Shown one piece after another: positions 33 through 62,307 of a DNA stretch of 64,000 nt (position 1 is its first letter; each line of letters opens with the position of its first letter). This stretch comes from Thermodesulfobacteriota bacterium (lineage in GTDB: Bacteria; Desulfobacterota_D; UBA1144; Nemesobacterales; JAJCZQ01): the NCBI GenBank assembly GCA_965215275.1, contig OZ244044.1, positions 1,728,001 through 1,792,000 on the forward strand, read 5' to 3'. Below the pieces are notes generated by a model. It was not told the DNA's origin and searched no databases. It was given only the letters and a program-made list of their open reading frames with translations. The translations under genes and the position numbers were made by a program.

Positions 33-62
33 TTGACATTCGTTCATAATACGAAGTAAAAT
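33..62 (+). promoter_or_regulatory. sigma70-type promoter of S8-like adhesin copy 1
   Basis: TTGACA (33-38), 18-bp spacer, TAAAAT (57-62); same elements and spacing upstream of copies 2 and 3. Confidence 0.7.
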
Positions 63-71
63 ATCAGTGTT

Positions 72-170
72 ATGAAAAATTTCATGAAAAGTTCAAACAT
101 AAAAACACGTAGTTCCATTACCCCCCCCCGTGTATACCTGACCTTTCAGCCTGGTATAAGTGTTTTTTAA
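72..170 (+). CDS. leader uORF (32 aa, MKNFMKSSNIKTRSSITPPRVYLTFQPGISVF) containing C9 tract
   Basis: ATG 9 nt after -10 box; homologous uORF in all three copies with only in-frame indels; stops 5 nt before second ATG (176). Confidence 0.55.
   Translation: MKNFMKSSNIKTRSSITPPRVYLTFQPGISVF
121..129 (+). repeat. poly-C tract 1 (C9), copy 1
   Basis: CATTA-C9-GTGTATACC context, identical length in the three copies. Confidence 0.9.
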
Positions 171-175
171 GAACA

Positions 176-3100
176 ATGTTTAAGATAATCCCCCCCCCCA
201 TCTAAGTTAATCCTTTCTTTATTCTTATTTTTTCTGTGCATCATTACTATAGCTGCAAAAGGGCAGAGCAGCTTAGAAGAAACATTATCTGAATGCAGAG
301 ATATCAGTGCAGACACGGAAGATCCGTTATACGGATGTCAGTGGCATCTGAAGAACACGGGGCAGCTTATTTATTCAGGAAAGAGAATAACATCAGGAGA
401 AGATATAAACGTAGAGGGAGTGTGGAACGAAGACGTATACGGTACCGGAATTAACATAGCAATAGTAAGTGACGGTATCGACCTTTCACATGAGGACCTT
501 TCTGCTAAGGTCCGTTCCGGACCGAACTATGATCTTTCTGAAAGAAATAATTCTGAAGAGAACAGTTCAGAAAAAGATAATTCAGAAAGAGATGATCTTT
601 CATACGGTTCATCCTTTAGTGGAACACGAGCGGCAGGTGTAATAGCAGCAACTGGATATAACGGACTGGGAGTAAGAGGAACAGCACCTGGTGCGAGTAT
701 ATACAGTTACGGGTTAACTGGTGATCTCAGGGAAGCGGACGCGGTGGTCCGTAATAAGGAAATAACGGCAGTATCGGTTAACGGCCGGGGATCTGAGGAC
801 GGAGCTTTTTTTCAGGAGGCTTCATCTTCCTGGGAAGAAGGATTGGAACTTGGAATAAGTAAAGGGTTTTATGGTAAAGGAGTGTTTTACGTCCGGGGAG
901 CAGGGGACGGGCATGAGAGCGGAGATCAGGCTAATTTTAATGAATATTCCAGCTATTACGGAGTAACGGCCGTTTGTTCAACTGACGGTTTTGGAAAAAA
1001 GAGTATTTTTTCAGAAGAGGGAGTAAATCTATGGGTATGTGCACCTGGTTCTGATATCGTGACCACGGATAACGGTGGTGGCTACACCGTAACTTCCGGA
1101 ACGTTCCTGTCAGCTTCACAGGTTGCAGGAGTGGCAGCACTGCTGAGAGAGATAAACGGGCAGCTGAGCTGGAGGGATATAAAGCTTATACTTGCGGGTT
1201 CAGCACGGCAGAACGATTTTTTTGACATGAGCTGGGAGACCGGAGCTGTTAAATACGGTTCTGACGTGGAAAGATATAAATATAGTCCCAGGTATGGTTT
1301 TGGCGTGGTAGACGCGGAAGCAGCCGCAGAACTTGCCAGAAACTGGAAAGGCGTTGGAGAGATGAGGACCGTTACAGCTTCTTCAGATAATGAACTGACG
1401 ATCCCTGATGGAGAAGAAAATGGAGATGGAGAAGCGGACGGGGTACTTACCTCCGGACTTGTGATACCGGACCTGGAGGAAATATTTACGGAATTCGTTG
1501 AGGTAGAACTTGTTTTTTCTCATGACCGCTTACAGGACCTCAATATACAGATAACCTCTCCTTCCGGGACAGTATCGGAACTTGTAAGGGAGTTTTCAGG
1601 GGAGGAAGAAGGCGCTGAGATCAGTTACCTGAGAAGAACACATCGTTTCGGGTCGGCTAAACACCTCGGAGAAGACCCTTCCGGAGAATGGACCCTTAAA
1701 ATATCCGATACTGCTTCCGGAGATGGAGAAGCAGAAAATTCAGAAAATACCGGGACCTTACACTCATGGAGCATCAGGGTCTACGGGCATGTTTTTTTAT
1801 CAGACCGTGGCAAGGAGATAACTACTAAAATAATAACCTTGCCACTTATTAGTGACAAGGTCTACGAACAAGGTAGACTAGTAAGTGAAGTGATGCCTGA
1901 AGCAACGGGAGGGACCGCTCCATATAATTATAGATTTGCTTTTACTTACCCTCTACCTAATGGATTGGAATTTGATCGTGACACCAGAGTGTTAAGTGGG
2001 GTACCAACTACTGTGGGTGTGACCAGTGTTGTATATGTGGCAACAGATTCAAGTCCCCAGGGTTTTTCCCGCACCCGTCAATTCCATATAACGATAACTG
2101 CTAACCCCGTGCCAACCTTCGGCAGTGAGACGGTAGAGGATCAGACGTGGGTTAATGGCAGCGCAGTAACGTTAACTCTGCCTCAGGCAACTGGAGGGAA
2201 TGGAACTTTAACTTACAGTATAGAACGAACTGGTAGCGGTGAAGAAGGTTTACCTGCTGGATTGGACTTTACCGCAAGCACCAGAGAGATAAGTGGAACG
2301 CTAAACGTTCGTGGACAATTACCTGTAACTGCTACTTATACCTACAAGGTAACTGATGATGACGGAGACACGGATACTCGCACCTTCTCTATTACTATAG
2401 AAGCTGATACAGAGCCGAGCTTTGGAGGTCAGTCAATTCCTGATCAGATATATATTCAAGGGACAACGGCAAACCTTCCAGTAACACTGCCTGCTGCAAC
2501 GGGAGGGAATGGGACTTTAACTTACAGTTTAGTTCCTAAACTGCCGGATGGACTGATATTTACCCCTGCTACCAGAGAGATAACAGGAACACCGACCACT
2601 GCAACGTCTGAGACTGATTACACGTATACGGTTGCTGATCTAGATGGAGATACGGATGAAATAGAGTTCAATATCACGGTAAGAACAGAACCGAACACAA
2701 TGCCGACCTTCGGCAGTGAGAGTATAGATAATAAGGTGTACATTAACGGCATTACAGCAGTAATGGAAACACTTCCTGAAGCAACGTCAGGGAATGCACC
2801 ATTAACTTACAGTTTAACTCCTGCCTTACCTGCCGGATTGGATTTTACCCCTGCTACACAAGTTATAAGCGGAACACCGACTACTGCAACGTCTGAGACT
2901 GATTACACGTATACAGTAACGGACGCAGATAATGATACAGATAAACTGGAGTTCAGCATAACAGTGGAAGAAGACAGCGAACCGGACTTCAGCGTGACGA
3001 CGATAGAAGATCAGGTGTACATGGGGAGATCAATAAGGTTGCCGGTAGCAACGGGAGGGAATGCACCGTTAGTATACAGTATAACGCCTCCCTTACCTCC

Positions 3101-3458
3101 TGGGTTGAGATTGGACAGAAACACCGGGGTAATAAGCGGGACGCCCGCGAGTGCGTCGTCTGAGAGGACCTACACGTACACGGTAACGGACAGGAATGGA
3201 GACATGAAAGAGTTGACCTTCAGGTTCAGTGCAGCGGCTCCGCCACCGACAGGTAGTGATCCAGGCGGAGGTGGAGGAGGATGTGCCGTATCAGATCAGA
3301 GCAGTGTTGCTTATGATATTCTCGGAGTAATGACATGTCTGATGCTTATACCCGTGTCGGTATTGATCAGAAGGAAAAGAAGATCTCAGATTAAGGACAC
3401 ATGTCACGATGGAGTAAGTGCTTGTGGGTGGCCTTTTGATATACTCTGCCGCCTTTAA
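176..3458 (+). CDS. surface protein copy 1: inactive S8 subtilase domain + P-domain + 5 Ig-like repeats + GGGGGGC-TM-basic C-terminal anchor (frameshift in C10)
   Basis: ORF 420..3458 is open upstream to 189; S8 motifs IVSDG/SGT/GTF; P-domain GEWTLKISD..LHSWSI; repeated PEATGG..LTYSL..LP.GL.F...TREISGTP; C-terminal GGGGGGC, hydrophobic helix, RRKRR. Confidence 0.8.
190..199 (+). repeat. poly-C tract 2 (C10), copy 1, frameshifts signal peptide
   Basis: ATG176 reads MFKIIPPPI* with C10; with C9 it reads MFKIIPPPSKLILSLFLFFLCIITIAAKGQ... into the main ORF. Confidence 0.9.
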
Positions 3459-15330: not shown

Positions 15331-15341
15331 GGGGGGGGGGG
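15331..15341 (+). repeat. poly-G tract (G11)
   Basis: AT-G11-ATTATCT, reverse complement of the tract-2 context. Confidence 0.85.
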
Positions 15342-16477: not shown

Positions 16478-16507
16478 TTGACATTTATTCATAATACGAA
16501 GTAAAAT
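16478..16507 (+). promoter_or_regulatory. sigma70-type promoter of copy 2
   Basis: TTGACA-18-TAAAAT. Confidence 0.7.
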
Positions 16508-16516
16508 ATTAATGTT

Positions 16517-16609
16517 ATGAAAAGTTCAAATGTAAAAACAAAAACGCATAGTTCCATTACCCCCCCCCGTGTATACCTGAACTTTCAGCCTGGTATAAGT
16601 ATTTTGTAA
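16517..16609 (+). CDS. leader uORF (30 aa) with C9 tract (16560-16568), copy 2
   Basis: MKSSNVKTKTHSSITPPRVYLNFQPGISIL*, homologous to 72..170. Confidence 0.55.
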   Translation: MKSSNVKTKTHSSITPPRVYLNFQPGISIL

Positions 16610-16614
16610 GAACA

Positions 16615-19600
16615 ATGTTTAAGATAATCCCCCCCCCCATCTAAGTCATTACTAACTTTAGTCTTTATTCTTCTGTTTATACTGGTAATAGCTGCAAAAG
16701 GGCAGAGCAGCCTGGAAGAAACATTATCTGAATGCAGAGGCATCAGTGCAGACACGGAAGATCCGTTATACGGATGTCAGTGGCATCTGAAGAACACGGG
16801 GCAGTTAAGTTTTTCCGGAAATAGAATAACTGCAGGAGAAGATATAAACATAGAGGGGGTGTGGAACGAAGACGTATACGGTACCGGAATTAACGTAGCA
16901 ATAGTAAGTGACGGTATCGACCTTTCACATGAGGACCTTTCTGCAAACGTCCGTTCCGGACCGAACTATGATCTTTCTGACAGTTCATCCTTTAGTGGGA
17001 CAAGAGCGGCAGGAGTAACAGCAGCAACTGGATATAACGGACTGGGAGTAAGAGGAACAGCACCTGGTGCGAGTATATACAGTTACAGGTTATCCGGTGA
17101 TATCAGTGAAGCGGACGCGGTGGTCCGTAATAAGGAAATAACAGCAGTATCGGTTAACGGCCGGGGATCTGAGGACGGAGCTTTTTTTCAGGAGGCTTCA
17201 TCTTCCTGGGAAGAAGGAGTGGAACTTGGTATAAAGCAAGGGTTTTACGGTAAAGGGGTGTTTTACGTCCGGGGAGTAGGGGACGGGCATGAAAGAGGAG
17301 ATCAGGCTAATTTTAATGAATATTCCAGCTATTACGGAGTAACAGCCGTCTGTTCAACGGACGGCTTTGGAAAGAAGAGTATTTTTTCAGAAGAGGGAGT
17401 AAATCTGTGGGTATGTGCACCTGGTTCTGATATTGTAACTACTGATAACAAAAACGATTACGTTGTAACTTCCGGAACATTTCTATCAGCTTCACAGGTT
17501 GGAGGAGTGGCAGCACTGCTGAGAGAGATAAACGGGAATCTGAGCTGGAGGGATATAAAGCTTATACTTGCGGGTTCAGCACGGCAGAACGATTTTTTTG
17601 ATATGAGCTGGGAGACTGGAGCTGTTAAATACGGTTCTGATACGGAAAGATATAATTCTAATCCTAAGTATGGTTTTGGCGTGGTAGACGCAGAAGCAGC
17701 TGCAGAACTTGCAAAAAGCTGGAAAGGCGTTGGAGAGATGAGGACCATTACAGCTTCTTCAGATAATGAACTGACAATTCCTGATGGAGAAGGAGAAGCA
17801 GACGGGGTCCTTGTTTCCAGACTTATGATCCCGGACCTGGAGGAAATATTTACGGAATTCGTTGAGGTAGAACTTGTTTTCTCTCATGACCGCTTACAGG
17901 ACCTTGATATAAAAATAACCTCTCCTTCCGGGACAGTTTCGGAACTTGTGCGGGAGGTTGCCGGGGAGTCTGTAAGGGGATCTTCGGATGAAGAAAAAAA
18001 CTGCGTCAGTTACCAGAGAAGAACACATCGTTTCGGGTCGGCTAAACACCTCGGAGAAGACCCTTCCGGAGAATGGGTCCTTAAGATCTCCGATACTGCT
18101 TCCGGAGATGAAGAAGATGAAAAAAACACTTTTACCTTACACTCCTGGAGCATTAAGGTATACGGGCATTTTTATCAGGGACCTGGCAGTGAGATAAGTG
18201 CTAAACATCATGATTTCAGTTTTGGTGGTGCGACAATTCAAGATCAGGAGTATCAAATAGGAGTTCAGATAACACCATTAGAACTGCCTAGAGGAACTGG
18301 TGGGGGTGGTGGAAGTAGATACAGGTTAGAACCTAATCTGCCTTCTGGATTGAGGCGTATCATCGACACAATAAGTGGCACACCAAATACTCTGATGTCT
18401 GAGACTACTTATACATGGACTGGTACAGGTCTTAATGGAGATAGTGAAAGTATAACGTTCACCATTACGGTGGTAACAGAACTTAACTCAGAACCAACCT
18501 TCTCAGGAGCAACTGTCCCAGAGCAGATATGGACGGAAGGGGTAAGGATACCAACGTTACGTTTTCCTAATGCAACTGGAGGTAACGGAACTTTAACATA
18601 CTTTTTAAGTCCTGCGCAGCCAGTTGGTATCAGCAGACAGGACAACAGGTTATTCGGAACACCTACGGAACCTCAAAGAAGATCTCTTTATACATGGACA
18701 GTCAGAGACAAAGATAATGATGAAGATATTATTGAGTTCTATATTACTGTAAGAGAGAACGTCCCTACCTTCGGAGGTCAGACCATACCTCAGCAGAATT
18801 ATATAGTAGGCAGAACAATACAAAGATTAGTATTTCCTCGTGCAACGGGAGGGAATGGAACTTTAAATTACAGTTTAACTAATAGTATAGGTGATCCAAT
18901 TAAAATTAATGGATTGGATTATAACGAAAACACCAGAACGTTAAGTGGAACGCTCAACGTTTCTCCAAGTGGATTACCTATAACTCAAACTTATACTTAC
19001 AAGGTAACTGACTCTGACTCAGATGATGACGGTGATTCTGACAGTATTACTTTCTCTATTACTATAACGGCGGTCCTGGCCTTTACCCGGCCTGTATTTA
19101 GTCTTTATACGTTTGTAGCGGGTAATTTCCACTCCACAACTCTGCCAGAGGCAACGGGAGGGAAAACTCCCTTAACTTACAGTTTAACACCTGCATTATT
19201 TGATGGATTGGAATTTAATCCTGCTACCAGAGTGTTAAGCGGAACACCAACTGATGCAACAAAGCCTAGGAAGACTTATACATATACCGTTACTGACACA
19301 GATGGAATTACGAAAGAGCAGACGTTTGATGCTCAGGTAAGAGCAAATATTACTAACATAACGGTAGTAGATAAGGTATATAAGGTCGGTACAGCAGTAA
19401 CGGACACACTGCCTATTGCAGCGGGAGATGGTGGTGGAATATTAACTTACAGTTTAACTCCTTCTTTACCTTCTGGACTGAGTTTTAACAATAACACCCG
19501 AGAGATAACTGGAACGCCAGATACTGCAACTTCCAGAATAACTTACACTTATAGAGTAACTGACACAGTGGGAGATACTGCTCCTTTAACCTTCAATATC

Positions 19601-20383
19601 ACGGTAGTAAGAGCAGAACCAGACACGGAACCAACCTTCGGGAGTGAAACTATAGATAATAAGGTGTATATAAACGGAGAAGCAGTAAATGAAACACTGC
19701 CTGAAGCAATGGGAGGGAATGCTCCATTAACTTACAGTTTAACTAATAGTGTAGGTAATCCAATTAACATTCGTGGATTAAGTTTTAACAGAAACACCAG
19801 AACGTTAAGTGGAACATCCACCGTCAGTGTACATCTACTTCCTACAACTAAGACATATACATATAAAGTAACAGACAATGATGGAGATACAGCAGAGATA
19901 ACGTTCAGGATAACAATAGAAGAAGACAGCGAACCGGACTTCAGCGGTACAACAATACCTGATCGGGTGTACACGGGGAGAACAATAACGCTGCCGGAGG
20001 CAACGGGAGGAAATTTACCAGTTACTTACAGTATAACACCTGATCTGCCAGCTGGATTGAGATTTAACGAAGTAACGCGGGAAATAAGTGGGACACCCAG
20101 GAGTGCATCATCTGCTGCTTCTTACACGTATACGGCAACGGACAGGAATGGAAATACGGATGAGGTGAGTTTCATGCTCAGTGTAGAGGTTCCTTCTACT
20201 CCACCAACACCACCACGAGGACCAAGAACATCAGGTACTGATTCAGGCGGAGGTGGAGGAGGATGTGCTGTATCAGAGCAGAGCAGCGTTGCTTCTGATA
20301 TTCTCGGAGTAATGGCATGTCTGATGCTTATACCTGTATCTATAGTGATCAGAAGGAAGGGAAGGTCTCAGATAAAGATGTAG
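16615..20383 (+). CDS. surface protein copy 2: inactive S8 + P-domain + 7 Ig-like repeats + C-terminal anchor (frameshift in C10 16629-16638)
   Basis: ORF 16859..20383 open upstream to the C tract; C9 gives MFKIIPPPSKSLLTLVFILLFILVIAAKGQ. Confidence 0.8.
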
Positions 20384-58369: not shown

Positions 58370-58399
58370 TTGACATCCGTTCATAATACTTGGTAAAAT
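58370..58399 (+). promoter_or_regulatory. sigma70-type promoter of copy 3
   Basis: TTGACA-18-TAAAAT with TG extension. Confidence 0.7.
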
Positions 58400-58408
58400 A
58401 TCAATGTT

Positions 58409-58495
58409 ATGAAAAATCCAAACATAAAAACACGTAGTTCCATTACCCCCCCCCGTGTATACCTGACCTTTCAGTCTGGTATAAGTATTTTTTAA
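58409..58495 (+). CDS. leader uORF (28 aa) with C9 tract (58446-58454), copy 3
   Basis: MKNPNIKTRSSITPPRVYLTFQSGISIF*. Confidence 0.55.
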   Translation: MKNPNIKTRSSITPPRVYLTFQSGISIF

Positions 58496-58500
58496 GAACA

Positions 58501-61500
58501 ATGTTTAAGATAATCCCCCCCCCCATCTAAGTCATTACTTACGTTAGTTTTATTTATTCTGTTTATAATGGTAATAGCTGCAAAAGGGCAGAGCAGCCTG
58601 GAAGAAAAATTATCTGAATGCAGAGTTAACAGTTCAGACACGGAAGATCCGTTATACGGATGTCAGTGGCATCTGAAGAACACGGGGCAGTTAAGTTATT
58701 CCGGAAAAGCAGTAACAGCAGGAGAAGATATAAACATAGAGGAGGTGTGGAACGAAGACGTATACGGTTCTGGAATTAATGTAGCAATAGTAAGTGACGG
58801 TATCGACCTTTCACATGAGGACCTTTCTGCAAACGTCCGTTCCGGACTGAACTATGATCTGTCTGACAGTTCATCCTTTACCGGAACACGAGCGGCAGGA
58901 GTAACAGCAGCGGCTGGATATAACGGACTGGGAGTAAGAGGAACTGCACCTGGTGCGAGTATATACAGTTACAGGTTATCCGGTGATCTCAGTGAAGCGG
59001 ACGCGGTGGTCCGTAATAAGGAAATAACCGCTGTATCGGTTAACGGCCGGGGATCTGAGGACGGAGCTTTTTTTCAGGAGGCTTCAACTTCCTGGGAAGA
59101 AGGAGTGGAACTTGGTATAAGTAAAGGGTTTTATGGTAAAGGAGTGTTTTACGTCCGGGGAGCAGGGGACGGGCATGAGAATAACGATCAGGCTAATTTT
59201 TCTGAATATTCTAATTACTACGGCGTAACTGCCGTGTGTTCAACAGACGGTTATGGAAAAAAGAGTATTTTTTCAGAAGAGGGAGTAAATCTATGGGTAT
59301 GTGCACCTGGTTCTGATATTGTAACCACAGATAACAACGACGATTACGTTGTAACTTCCGGAACATTTCTATCAGCTTCACAGGTTGGAGGAGTGGCAGC
59401 ACTGCTGAGAGAGATAAACGGGAATCTGAGCTGGAGGGATATAAAGCTTATACTTGCGGGTTCAGCACGTCAGAACGATTTTTTTGATATTAGCTGGGAG
59501 ACTGGAGCTGTTAAATACGGCTCTGACACGGAAAGATATAAATATAATCCTAAGTATGGTTTTGGCGTGGTAGACGCAGAAGCAGCTGCAGAGCTTGCAA
59601 AAAGCTGGAAAGGAGTTGGTGAAATGAGGACCGTTACAGCTTCTTCAGATAATGAGATAACAATTCCTGATGGAGAAGGAGAAGCAGACGGGGTCCTTGT
59701 TTCCAGACTTATGATCCCGGACCTGGAGGAAATATTTACGGAATTCGTTGAGGTAGAACTTGTTTTCTCTCATGACCGCTTACAGGACCTTAATATAAAT
59801 ATAACCTCTCCTTCCGGGACAGTTTCGGAACTTGTGCGGGAGGTTGCCGGGGAGTCTGTAAGGGGATTTTCGGATGAAGAAAAAAACTGCGTCAGTTACC
59901 TGAGAAGAACACATCGTTTCGGGTCGGCTAAGCACCTCGGGGAAGACCCTTCCGGAGAATGGGTCCTTAAGATATCCGATACTGCTTCCGGAGATGAAGA
60001 AAATGAAAAAAACACTGTTACCTTACACTCCTGGAGCATTAAGGTATACGGGCATGTTTCTTTTCAGGATTTTGGCAAGGGAATAACTACTAAAGCAATA
60101 CAATTTATTGATAGTCAGATTCCTGATGATCAGGTGTATAAACAAGGGGTTCAGATAACAACATTAAGGCTGCCTAGGCCAATTGGGTCCACTGGAACAG
60201 TAAATTACACCTTAACTCCTGCTTTACCTGCTGGATTGAGTTTTAGAACTGATGGTCATCGAGAGATACGCGGGACACCCACTACTGAAATGAGTAAGAC
60301 TGCTTACACTTTTTCGGCAACAGACTCAAGTGGAACTGCTTCGGTTACTTTCCATATTACTGTAAGAGATAAAGATGACGTACCAAGCTTCGGCAGTGAG
60401 ACGGTAGAAGATCAGAGTTATGTTAATGGTTCAGCAGTAACGTTAACTCTGCCTGCTGCAACAGGAAAGGATACTCCATTAACTTACAGTTTAGTTAATT
60501 CAGGTTCATCTCAGCTTAGTTTATTTCGTGGATTGGAATTTAACGCAAACACCAGAAAGATAACAGGGACACTTGACGAAGATTTAGCTGGATTTTTATT
60601 CAGGAGGCATACTTACACATATACAGTAACGGACAGTGAAGGAGATACTGATACACTTGAGTTCAGAATAACTGTAACAAGGAAATCCCCGCTTAGCTTT
60701 GGAGGTCAGACAATACCAGATCATACGTATGTAAGACTTCAGACAATAAGAAATCCGTTAACTTTTCCTGAAGCAACGGGAGGTGCTGCTCCCTTGACTT
60801 ACAGTATAAATCCTATGGTACAGACTGGACTTGCTTTCAGCAGTTCCACTCGGAGGATAACCGGGTCACCTGGGACTGTAAGGAGCAGAACTGAGCATAC
60901 GTATACGGTAACGGACAATCAGGGAGATACAGCTGAGATAACGTTCGGTATAACCGTAGAAGGAAATGACAGGAGGACGCGTTTCAGAGCAGGTGAGAAT
61001 ATCTCTGATAAGTTTTATTTTACAGGTGTTCCGATAACGCCGGTAACGCTGCCCAGGGCAACTAACGGGAACAGTCCGATAAGATACAGTTTAAATCCTT
61101 CTTTACCAACTGGATTGAGCTTTAACGCAAATACCCGGGAGATAAGCGGGACACCGACTGCTGCAAGCAGTAACACAGAGTATACATACAGAGCATCAGA
61201 CCTTGATGGAGACAGTCGTGATCTGAAGTTCAGTATAACGGTAACGAATGAAGCAGACACTGACCCAAGCTTCGGGAGTGAGACCATAGATAACAAGGTG
61301 TATATAAACGGAGAAGCAGTAAATGAAACACTGCCTGAAGCAACGTCAGGGAATGCTCCATTAACTTACAGTTTAAGTGCTGGTTTACCTAGTGGAGTGA
61401 TCTTTACCGCAAACACCAGAGAGTTAAGTGGAACAATTAAAATGTCTCATACATCCTTACTTCCTCTACTTTTCCTTTTACATATAAAGTAACAGACAAT

Positions 61501-62307
61501 GATGGAGATACAGCAGAGATAACGTTCAGTATCACTGTAAGACCAGCAGAACCTGACACAATGCCGACCTTCGGGAGTGAGACCATAGATAACAAGGTGT
61601 ATATAAACGGAGAAGCAGTAAATGAAACACTGCCTGAAGCAACGTCAGGGAATGCTCCATTAACTTACAGTTTAAGTGCTGGTTTACCTAGTGGAGTGAT
61701 CTTTACCGCAAACACCAGAGAGTTAAGTGGAACAATTAAAATGTCTCATACATCCTTACTTCCTCTAACTTTTCCTTTTACATATAAAGTAACAGACAAT
61801 GATGGAGATACAGCAGAGATAACGTTCAGTATAACAGTAGAAGAAGACAGCGAACCGGACTTCAGCGGTGTGAGAATACCAGATCGTGTGTACACGGGGA
61901 GAACAATAGAGCTGCCAGAGGCAGCGGGAGGGAATTTACCGGTTACATACAGTATAACACCTGATCTGCCAGCTGGATTGAGATTTAACGAAGTTACCAG
62001 AGTAATAAGTGGGACACCCAGGAGTGCATCATCTGCTGCTTCTTACACGTATACGGCAACGGACAGGAATGGAAATACGGATACATTGGATTTCATGTTA
62101 AGTGTAGAGGTTCCTTCTACTCCAGGACCAACACCACCACGAGGACCAAGAACGTCAGGTAGTGATTCAGGCGGAGGTGGAGGAGGATGTGCTGTTTCAG
62201 ATCAGAGCAGCGTTGATGAAGATATTCTCGGAGTAATGACATGTCTGATACTTATACCTGTGTCAGTAGTTATCAGAAGGAAGAGAAGATATCAGATAAA
62301 GACGTAG
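58501..62307 (+). CDS. surface protein copy 3: inactive S8 + P-domain + 7 Ig-like repeats + anchor (frameshifts at C10 58515-58524 and at ~61468)
   Basis: ORFs 58568..61492 and 61561..62307 join if one A is restored at 61468. Confidence 0.8.
61270..61832 (+). repeat. recent ~300-bp tandem duplication of one Ig module
   Basis: 61270-61532 matches 61569-61832 except CTACT vs CTAACT. Confidence 0.92.

Follow-up and report, generated by a model that had tools for sequence, protein, structure and literature searches.

What do two cytosine homopolymers in a row do in front of each of three paralogous genes? The question is raised by a 64,000-nt stretch of the genome of a Thermodesulfobacteriota bacterium (GenBank assembly GCA_965215275.1, contig OZ244044.1, positions 1,728,001 to 1,792,000; hereafter, the window), in which an earlier note, made from the sequence alone, had described one and the same two-tract cassette at 33-260, 16478-16700 and 58370-58590 and had proposed that it is a two-tier switch of adhesin genes. 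All three cassettes read as described. We find that the cassette is a two-in-a-row module, in which the second poly-C run (tract 2) probably turns the gene on or off by slippage in DNA, and the first run (tract 1) would decide which route ribosomes take from the upstream promoter, P1. Coordinates refer to the window unless prefixed by G000, the genome that contains it; G001, G011 and G064 are other genomes of the same order. G000 is a single contig of 1,990,023 bases, and by its sequence the host lineage is likely Ca. Dadabacteria: its RecA has its best named matches there (70%), and a named NadD homologue in a cluster at 46% belongs there too, although one record at 76% NadD identity carries the label Spirochaetia.

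In cassettes A, B and C, all on the forward strand, P1 has the form TTGACA-18-TAAAAT (33-62, with 11 of 12 consensus matches, 16478-16507 and 58370-58399, respectively), and a start codon, ATG1, follows its -10 element at a distance of 9 nt. From ATG1 (at 72, 16517 and 58409), an upstream open reading frame (uORF) of 32, 30 and 28 aa (72-170, 16517-16609 and 58409-58495) runs through tract 1, which is C9 in each copy (121-129, 16560-16568 and 58446-58454), and ends with TAA 5 nt before the second start codon, ATG2 (at 176, 16615 and 58501), the intervening nucleotides being GAACA. Tract 2 is C10 in all three (190-199, 16629-16638 and 58515-58524), and at this length ATG2 yields only MFKIIPPPI* (176-205 in A), the present OFF state. 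The frame of the large gene opens at tract 2, and no ATG, GTG or TTG precedes its hydrophobic stretch, for which the best 14-residue Kyte-Doolittle mean is 3.0-3.5 in the three copies. This stretch has diverged in DNA as the earlier note stated, with 40-50 of 57 nt identical between copies, versus 57-58 of 60 nt for the segment between the tracts. The length of tract 2 sets the frame between ATG2 and the signal peptide. One detail had to be corrected: with C8 or C11 in tract 1, the uORF does not stop at once, but ends three codons past the tract, 34 nt before ATG2.

The proposal that such a cassette is common to a gene family holds at the scale of the genome, where the doubled tract is found on 28 S8 protease-like paralogues. 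A tblastn search identified 58 S8 frames (two of them halves of one split gene), which make up ~9% of the 2-Mb genome (176 kb). A tract lies before the signal peptide in 50 of the 58, with one tract in 22 and two in 28. The genome contains 787 C/G runs of length 5 and 78 of length 6, but none of length 7 and 139 of length 8 or more, with a peak of 68 at length 9, whereas geometric extrapolation expects ~7.7 runs at length 7 and 0.85 at 8 or more. The poly-C tracts are thus far above chance, and 78 of the 139 runs stand before S8 signal peptides, at the 5' ends of a single gene family.

Most of these genes are out of frame, in agreement with the default-OFF state suggested previously. Nine of the 50 tract-bearing genes are ON, 26 need a shift of -1 and 15 a shift of +1, so that 41 are OFF; if lengths were random modulo 3 (ON chance 1/3), the probability of 9 or fewer ON genes would be 0.013. 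The state of the single-tract gene at G000 431072 is uncertain, its run lying well upstream of the gene. In 37 of the 41 OFF genes the open frame is intact to the Cys-containing membrane tail. Across the 28 cassettes, tract 1 measures 9 (n=14), 10 (5), 11 (5), 12 (3) or 13 (1), and tract 2 measures 8 (n=1), 9 (13), 10 (9), 11 (4) or 12 (1), with 5 of the 28 in frame. The identical lengths noted for the three window copies are real, but they do not extend to the family and are a small-sample effect. The modal length of 9 is used in 5 of the 17 tracts in which it would mean ON and in 20 of the 33 others, a possible avoidance of ON lengths that is suggestive only (P 0.07).

An OFF majority of this kind could also be a systematic homopolymer error of the assembly, a single-contig one for which the read type is not on record. 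Five sequencing runs contain at least half of the sampled words; their data were compared as contigs, and the length forms of A and B come from four of them, X1-X4. The earlier note had held that uniformly C9 or C12 reads at tract 2 would betray such an error. Instead, the form one base shorter is the minority in all four runs, at 2098 versus 12438, 54 versus 309, 586 versus 4091 and 1872 versus 9540 for A and at 472/15518, 21/308, 146/4162 and 499/15226 for B, and the contigs carry mostly C10 in both; these depths are pooled over paralogues because the tract-2 flanks are common to them. Furthermore, unique C8, C9, C10 and C11 tracts were reproduced without gaps in X1, and TA-C9 and T-C10 copies share the same OFF frame despite their unlike run lengths. 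An assembly artifact is hardly credible in view of these results.

The same data contain differences in tract length. At G000 1505400, the cassette has a tract 1 of C12 in X3 but of C11 in X1, on single-copy 5.19-kb contigs with 0 substitutions; X5, a run from a second study, also has C11 there. A unique G11 run at 15331 is G12 in X4 and G11 in X1-X3, with no substitutions in the bridging contigs. In X1, ~24.8 kb of pieces carry zero substitutions and one gap, which falls at a tract (a collapsed 768-nt piece with 3 differences was excluded). For the C11 version of B-type tract 2, contig depths are 0, 15, 103 and 115 in X1-X4 against single-copy depths of ~450, 10, 100 and 600, that is, single-copy depth in X2 and X3, about one-fifth of it in X4 and no listing in X1. 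X3 may be the source of the assembly. One-base differences at two unique tracts thus separate samples that are identical otherwise, which supports slippage in DNA and shows that the runs are hypermutable. The G11 run itself (15331-15341) directly follows a P1-like -10 element, and 21 nt separate it from the start of an AAA-ATPase gene (15363); it is a possible level switch in a 5' leader.

Taken together, the tracts have the features expected of phase variation by simple sequence repeats (SSRs): a long repeat in the 5' coding region far above chance, a repeat length that sets the frame of an otherwise intact gene, and lengths that differ between near-identical genomes, as at G000 1505400 and window 15331. 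The earlier proposal of poly-C slippage at tract 2 as an on/off frame switch is supported, as is that of a mostly OFF family.

What, then, is tract 1 for? A clue comes from the DNA between the two tracts. P1 typically has the form ACAC/ATAC-TTGACA-17/18-TARRRT-9 nt-ATG1, and the inter-tract segment the form ATAC-(C/T)TGA(A/C)C-17-TAnnnT-9 nt-ATG2. Judging from these motifs, the segment is a decayed copy of P1, here called P2, with the same 9-nt spacing to its start codon. In the window, P2 reads CTGACC-17-TGTTTT in A (138-166), where the -10 element has lost its A, CTGAAC-17-TATTTT in B (16577-16605) and CTGACC-17-TATTTT in C (58463-58491). Because the inter-tract DNA copies P1, the cassette is a tandem duplication of a promoter-ATG-poly-C module, which single-tract S8 genes carry once. 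This promoter-9 nt-ATG geometry is found in 44 of 56 poly-C-linked promoter matches versus 1 of 149 others. General leaderless translation was not seen in the genome, which otherwise relies on Shine-Dalgarno sites: such motifs were recognized before 167 of 568 crude operon-first starts, and these starts lack a clear -10 peak.

The only near-consensus promoter of the cassette is P1, which is of the sigma-70 type. P2 retains a TTGACC -35 element in three diverged cassettes and has lost it to decay in 25 of 28; its -10 element is broken (TGTTTT) in 5 of 28, including copy A, in which a consensus promoter scan did not call P2. Positions 1, 2 and 6 of the -10 element (T, A and T) are kept in 23, 21 and 24 of 24 distinct sequences, and positions 3-5 vary. 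At four further loci, the ATG1 module is fused directly to the sequence that otherwise follows tract 2, as a deletion between the runs would do. Three of these four collapsed loci have long intact frames and are nested among two-tract genes in a quick tree of the S8 family that includes one misaligned row, which suggests that ATG1 can lead a working signal peptide. The S8 family would thus illustrate the duplication, decay and collapse of a switch module among related genes.

The reading frames across tract 1 are also patterned. ATG1 lies 9 nt behind the -10 element in 28 of 28 cassettes, and the frame of ATG2 is open from tract 1 onward in all of them. In 27 of 28, the near frame, which is the one read at C9, has its stop between -5 and +1 of ATG2, with variants that follow lineage: TAA at -5, TGA or TAA at -2, or an overlapping TAATG. 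A stop within a few nucleotides of a start codon that has no Shine-Dalgarno motif is the arrangement expected of translational coupling. The three states predicted for tract 1 are all present in the family, with 14 cassettes in the near-stop state, 8 fused in frame to ATG2 and 6 with the early stop, and of the five ON two-tract genes, 4 are in the near-stop state and 1 is fused. The 6 copies that have diverged most all keep the fused frame open (simulated P 0.023). Tract 1 may supply the "level" tier of the two-tier switch. The earlier note had read the C9 stop as coupling and had pointed to the lack of a Shine-Dalgarno motif at ATG2; the motif is indeed absent, but its absence alone does not establish coupling, since a P2 copy precedes ATG2. 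A second promoter therefore rivals coupling as the explanation of tract 1.

If P2 is active, tract 2 would still be the on/off switch, but ATG2 would be served by its own near-leaderless transcript, and tract 1 would either gate an additional output from P1 or shift upstream A-rich elements relative to the -35 of P2, as the T-tract of sabA does. The match between P2 and P1 in sequence and geometry (-35, 17 nt, TAnnnT, 9 nt, ATG), the persistence of TTGACC in the diverged cassettes, the conserved T, A and T of the -10 element and the position of the end of tract 1, 8-12 nt upstream of the P2 -35, all speak for this possibility. Yet the -35 element of P2 is decayed in most cassettes, P2 of copy A gives no promoter call, and the broken -10 element recurs in 3 of the 5 ON two-tract genes, which would depend on P1 because of it. 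We consider it rather unlikely that ATG2 is served by P2, though this is the least unlikely of the alternatives. Even less probable is that only tract 2 is of consequence, with tract 1 and the uORF arising as a side effect when a promoter was duplicated and the copies were spread through gene conversion. The 22 family members that manage with a single tract are consistent with such a history, as are the near-copies, which inflate every conservation count, and the scatter of the two-tract state over the tree, which forces at least 4 changes. A mere by-product is harder to square with a tract 1 of at least 9 in 28 of 28 cassettes of a genome where such runs are rare by chance, with two frames constrained across diverged copies, and with P1 being the only near-consensus promoter.

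The earlier note had also raised programmed +1 ribosomal or transcriptional slippage, in which the DNA would be fixed and expression would come from frameshifting ribosomes or a slipping polymerase on the C-runs. The mode of run length at 9 nt and the excess of OFF genes with intact bodies would suit it, but run lengths span 8-13, shifts in both directions are needed while 9 genes are already in frame, and lengths differ between samples at the DNA level. Nor was a stimulatory structure found: structure after either tract is not conserved, with z values from -2.2 to +1.5, and a hairpin behind tract 1 was neither conserved nor significant. Programmed slippage is accordingly very improbable, although some slippage at the level of the transcript may occur. 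Rfam gave no match in the window.

Several observations weigh against a cassette in which tract 2 slips and tract 1 acts at translation. No single locus was found both ON and OFF at tract 2 in the X1-X4 contigs, whose depths are pooled; among unique bridged tracts, 1 of 7 differs in X1 and 0 of 5 in X3; and the genome retains intact frames for MutS (868 aa) and MutL (617 aa), which could slow switching. In the most diverged copies, the near stop is kept in 5 of 6 (simulated P 0.064, not significant alone), and the TAnnnT of P2 is likewise kept in 5 of 6 (simulated P 0.013), which speaks for a functional second promoter; related copies enter the simulations as if they were independent, so that the P values overstate conservation. 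These patterns thus lend support both to a gate at translation of the P1 transcript and to a functional P2. For the subfamily of the window the gate appears favoured, because P1 is near consensus whereas P2 has decayed, its -10 element being broken in 3 of 5 ON genes.

In the mechanism that we favour, replication slippage would reversibly change the C-runs, and slippage at tract 2 would switch a gene on or off. On a near-leaderless transcript from the strong P1, tract 1 likely decides how ribosomes reach the gene. Depending on its length, the uORF would stop within 5 nt of ATG2 and allow re-initiation, be read in frame into ATG2, giving a signal peptide longer by about 26-37 residues, or stop ~34 nt early and leave little product. 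In the subfamily of the window, P2 would act weakly as a promoter or be the vestige of one, and the module, which probably arose by duplication, could revert to one tract by deletion between the runs. Each cell would then display a small, changing subset of membrane-anchored, catalytically dead S8-Ig proteins (9 of 50 in the consensus). A broader picture, possible but tentative, is of a serial two-switch translational gate on 28 members of a mostly silent 50-gene dead-protease repertoire, forming an antigenic-variation-like system in uncultured Dadabacteria, with the few active proteases unswitched at their 5' ends.

The genes behind the three cassettes bear on this picture. The open frame of gene A (189-3458, forward strand, as are B and C) encodes a predicted signal peptide, a kexin-like S8 domain without the catalytic triad, a P-domain, He_PIG Ig repeats and a Cys-containing membrane tail; gene B (16628-20383; 1251 codons) has the same architecture. 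Gene C (58514-62307) is split into two frames (58514-61492 and 61561-62307) by a one-base frameshift near 61475, which lies in the Ig repeats outside a homopolymer, separates the body from the membrane tail and is either a real lesion or an assembly error. The S8 plus P-domain fold was assigned by sequence matches to kexin and furin entries in PDB (E 5e-31 to furin). In the alignment of gene A with furin, the catalytic Asp, His and Ser are replaced by Ser, Ser and Phe and the oxyanion Asn by Asp, and genes B and C show the same triad losses (Ser, Ser/Thr and Phe). The Asp-His-Ser triad of an active kexin-like S8 protease is thus absent from the three window proteins, which share the common S8 plus P-domain fold of kexin/furin-like proteases but differ from them in lacking the triad and in carrying Ig-like stalks and a membrane tail. 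By these substitutions, the products are best called pseudoproteases, and the adhesin role proposed for them is a guess.

Across the family, triad loss tracks the 5' poly-C tract: Asp-His-Ser is kept in 6 of 7 aligned tract-less genes versus 1 of 50 tract-bearing ones, two of the 50 having aligned poorly or lacking part of the domain. Poly-C switches in the S8 family thus appear to go with the loss of catalysis. Three dead-site patterns occur, S-S/T-F/V, D-R-S and D-R-A. About 48 of the 58 S8 frames lie on one strand irrespective of replichore, and long runs in G000 are likewise biased, with 108 of C versus 31 of G on the + strand. At G000 513689-518958 (minus strand), an internal G13 splits an S8 gene that belongs to the His-bearing clade, and an A9-G11 stretch lies directly before its ATG, so that control there would be by poly-G rather than poly-C.

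Long runs are also found in other genes of the genome. TPR-like genes, identified from their repeats by eye, contain an internal C9-C11 run that is in frame in some only (G000 19539, 20737, 31545, 1068992, 1899949, 1901573, 1914729 and 1964984). Poly-C also lies just behind the ATG at G000 570916, 734754, 1490289 and 1814694; the N-termini at these loci resemble what we take to be DNA methyltransferase motifs, suggesting switchable methylation.

We searched for the cassette elsewhere. Its DNA was found in 0 of 30 relatives, of which the sole same-genus genome is 80% complete and in 190 contigs, and close S8 paralogues were likewise not found in these 30 (best E 5e-13). Two homologues in other assemblies, 69-73% identical, are called from the same truncated starts as the OFF genes here. 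Among 100 other genomes of the order, a repeated two-tract module was found in none; the pattern matched in 5 of 100, and the inspected loci were low-complexity or unrelated to a gene start, except for two copies in G064 (L141 and L150), where C9 pairs ~65 nt apart lie in sequence unrelated to the window cassette. When metagenomes were scanned for the tract-2 junction, 34 matches resulted, and not one of them adjoins an S8 gene. Exact C9/G9 runs number 87 in G011 and 14 in G001, and of the long C/G runs inspected in such genomes, several occupy promoter spacers or directly follow a start codon. G9 runs occupy the spacer of TTGAC(A/T)...TA(A/G/T)AAT promoters in G001 (L167, L170 and L176) and G011 (L168, L171, L177, L186 and L189), with 14-16 nt spacers at G9; promoter switches of this porA-like kind thus recur in the order outside G000. 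Since the flank of tract 2 resembles the poly-G-spacer promoters of relatives, a promoter running antisense across the tract was considered, but it was rejected: of the 11 S8 tracts that match, 10 have a spacer of 13-14 nt and one a spacer of 19 nt, and most of them lead to no gene. With long C/G runs common in several more genomes of the order, the trait may be widespread in this phylum-level group.

Phase variation by homopolymer slippage is well known in pathogens, usually with one repeat per gene. In Cpn1054/ppp of Chlamydia pneumoniae and in the neisserial pilC and opa genes, the 5' end or the signal-peptide codons of paralogous surface genes contain a homopolymer or a short repeat; these sets comprise about a dozen genes or fewer, with one repeat per gene, and we know of no serial two-tract module among them. 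A limited search of the open-access literature gave no serial two-homopolymer uORF cassette among the matches listed, and none of its top 20 matches was a phase-variation paper on Dadabacteria. The class of mechanism is already known, and the doubled module, its spread over 28 paralogues, the mostly OFF dead-protease repertoire and the lineage are new as far as found.

The closest layout is that of sabA of Helicobacter pylori, in which a CT repeat at the 5' coding end gives on/off frameshifts and a T-tract beside the -35 element tunes the level (PMC4081817). Like sabA, the S8 genes have two variable repeats on one surface-protein gene. Unlike the single sabA gene, with its two kinds of repeat and transcriptional rheostat, they have two poly-C runs, both downstream of a start codon, in a duplicated module on 28 paralogues; tract 1 does adjoin the -35 of P2, yet is predicted to be transcribed and translated from P1. 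In number, the tracts recall the poly-G runs of Campylobacter (PMC6321876) and the SSR loci of Neisseria meningitidis (PMC5084427), where many G/C homopolymers lie mostly within reading frames of surface and DNA-modification genes. One C. jejuni isolate is credited with 81 putative variable repeats, a number 1.8 times the median of the species (PMC6321876), and variation is reported in 115 genes of N. meningitidis (PMC5084427); PMC11868660 offered nothing specific on the subject. Against the 81 repeats of C. jejuni, the genome studied here has 139 C/G runs, of which a single family bears 78 at its 5' ends, with MutS and MutL intact, a rough comparison only, as thresholds differ. If tract 1 indeed sets the mode of translation start, it would represent a form of control without a precedent found in the limited open-access literature. 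Compared with these systems, the S8 family presents a probable switch of the familiar pathogen type at an unusual scale and in a doubled layout, with 50 of 58 members gated and 28 of them by two runs in series.

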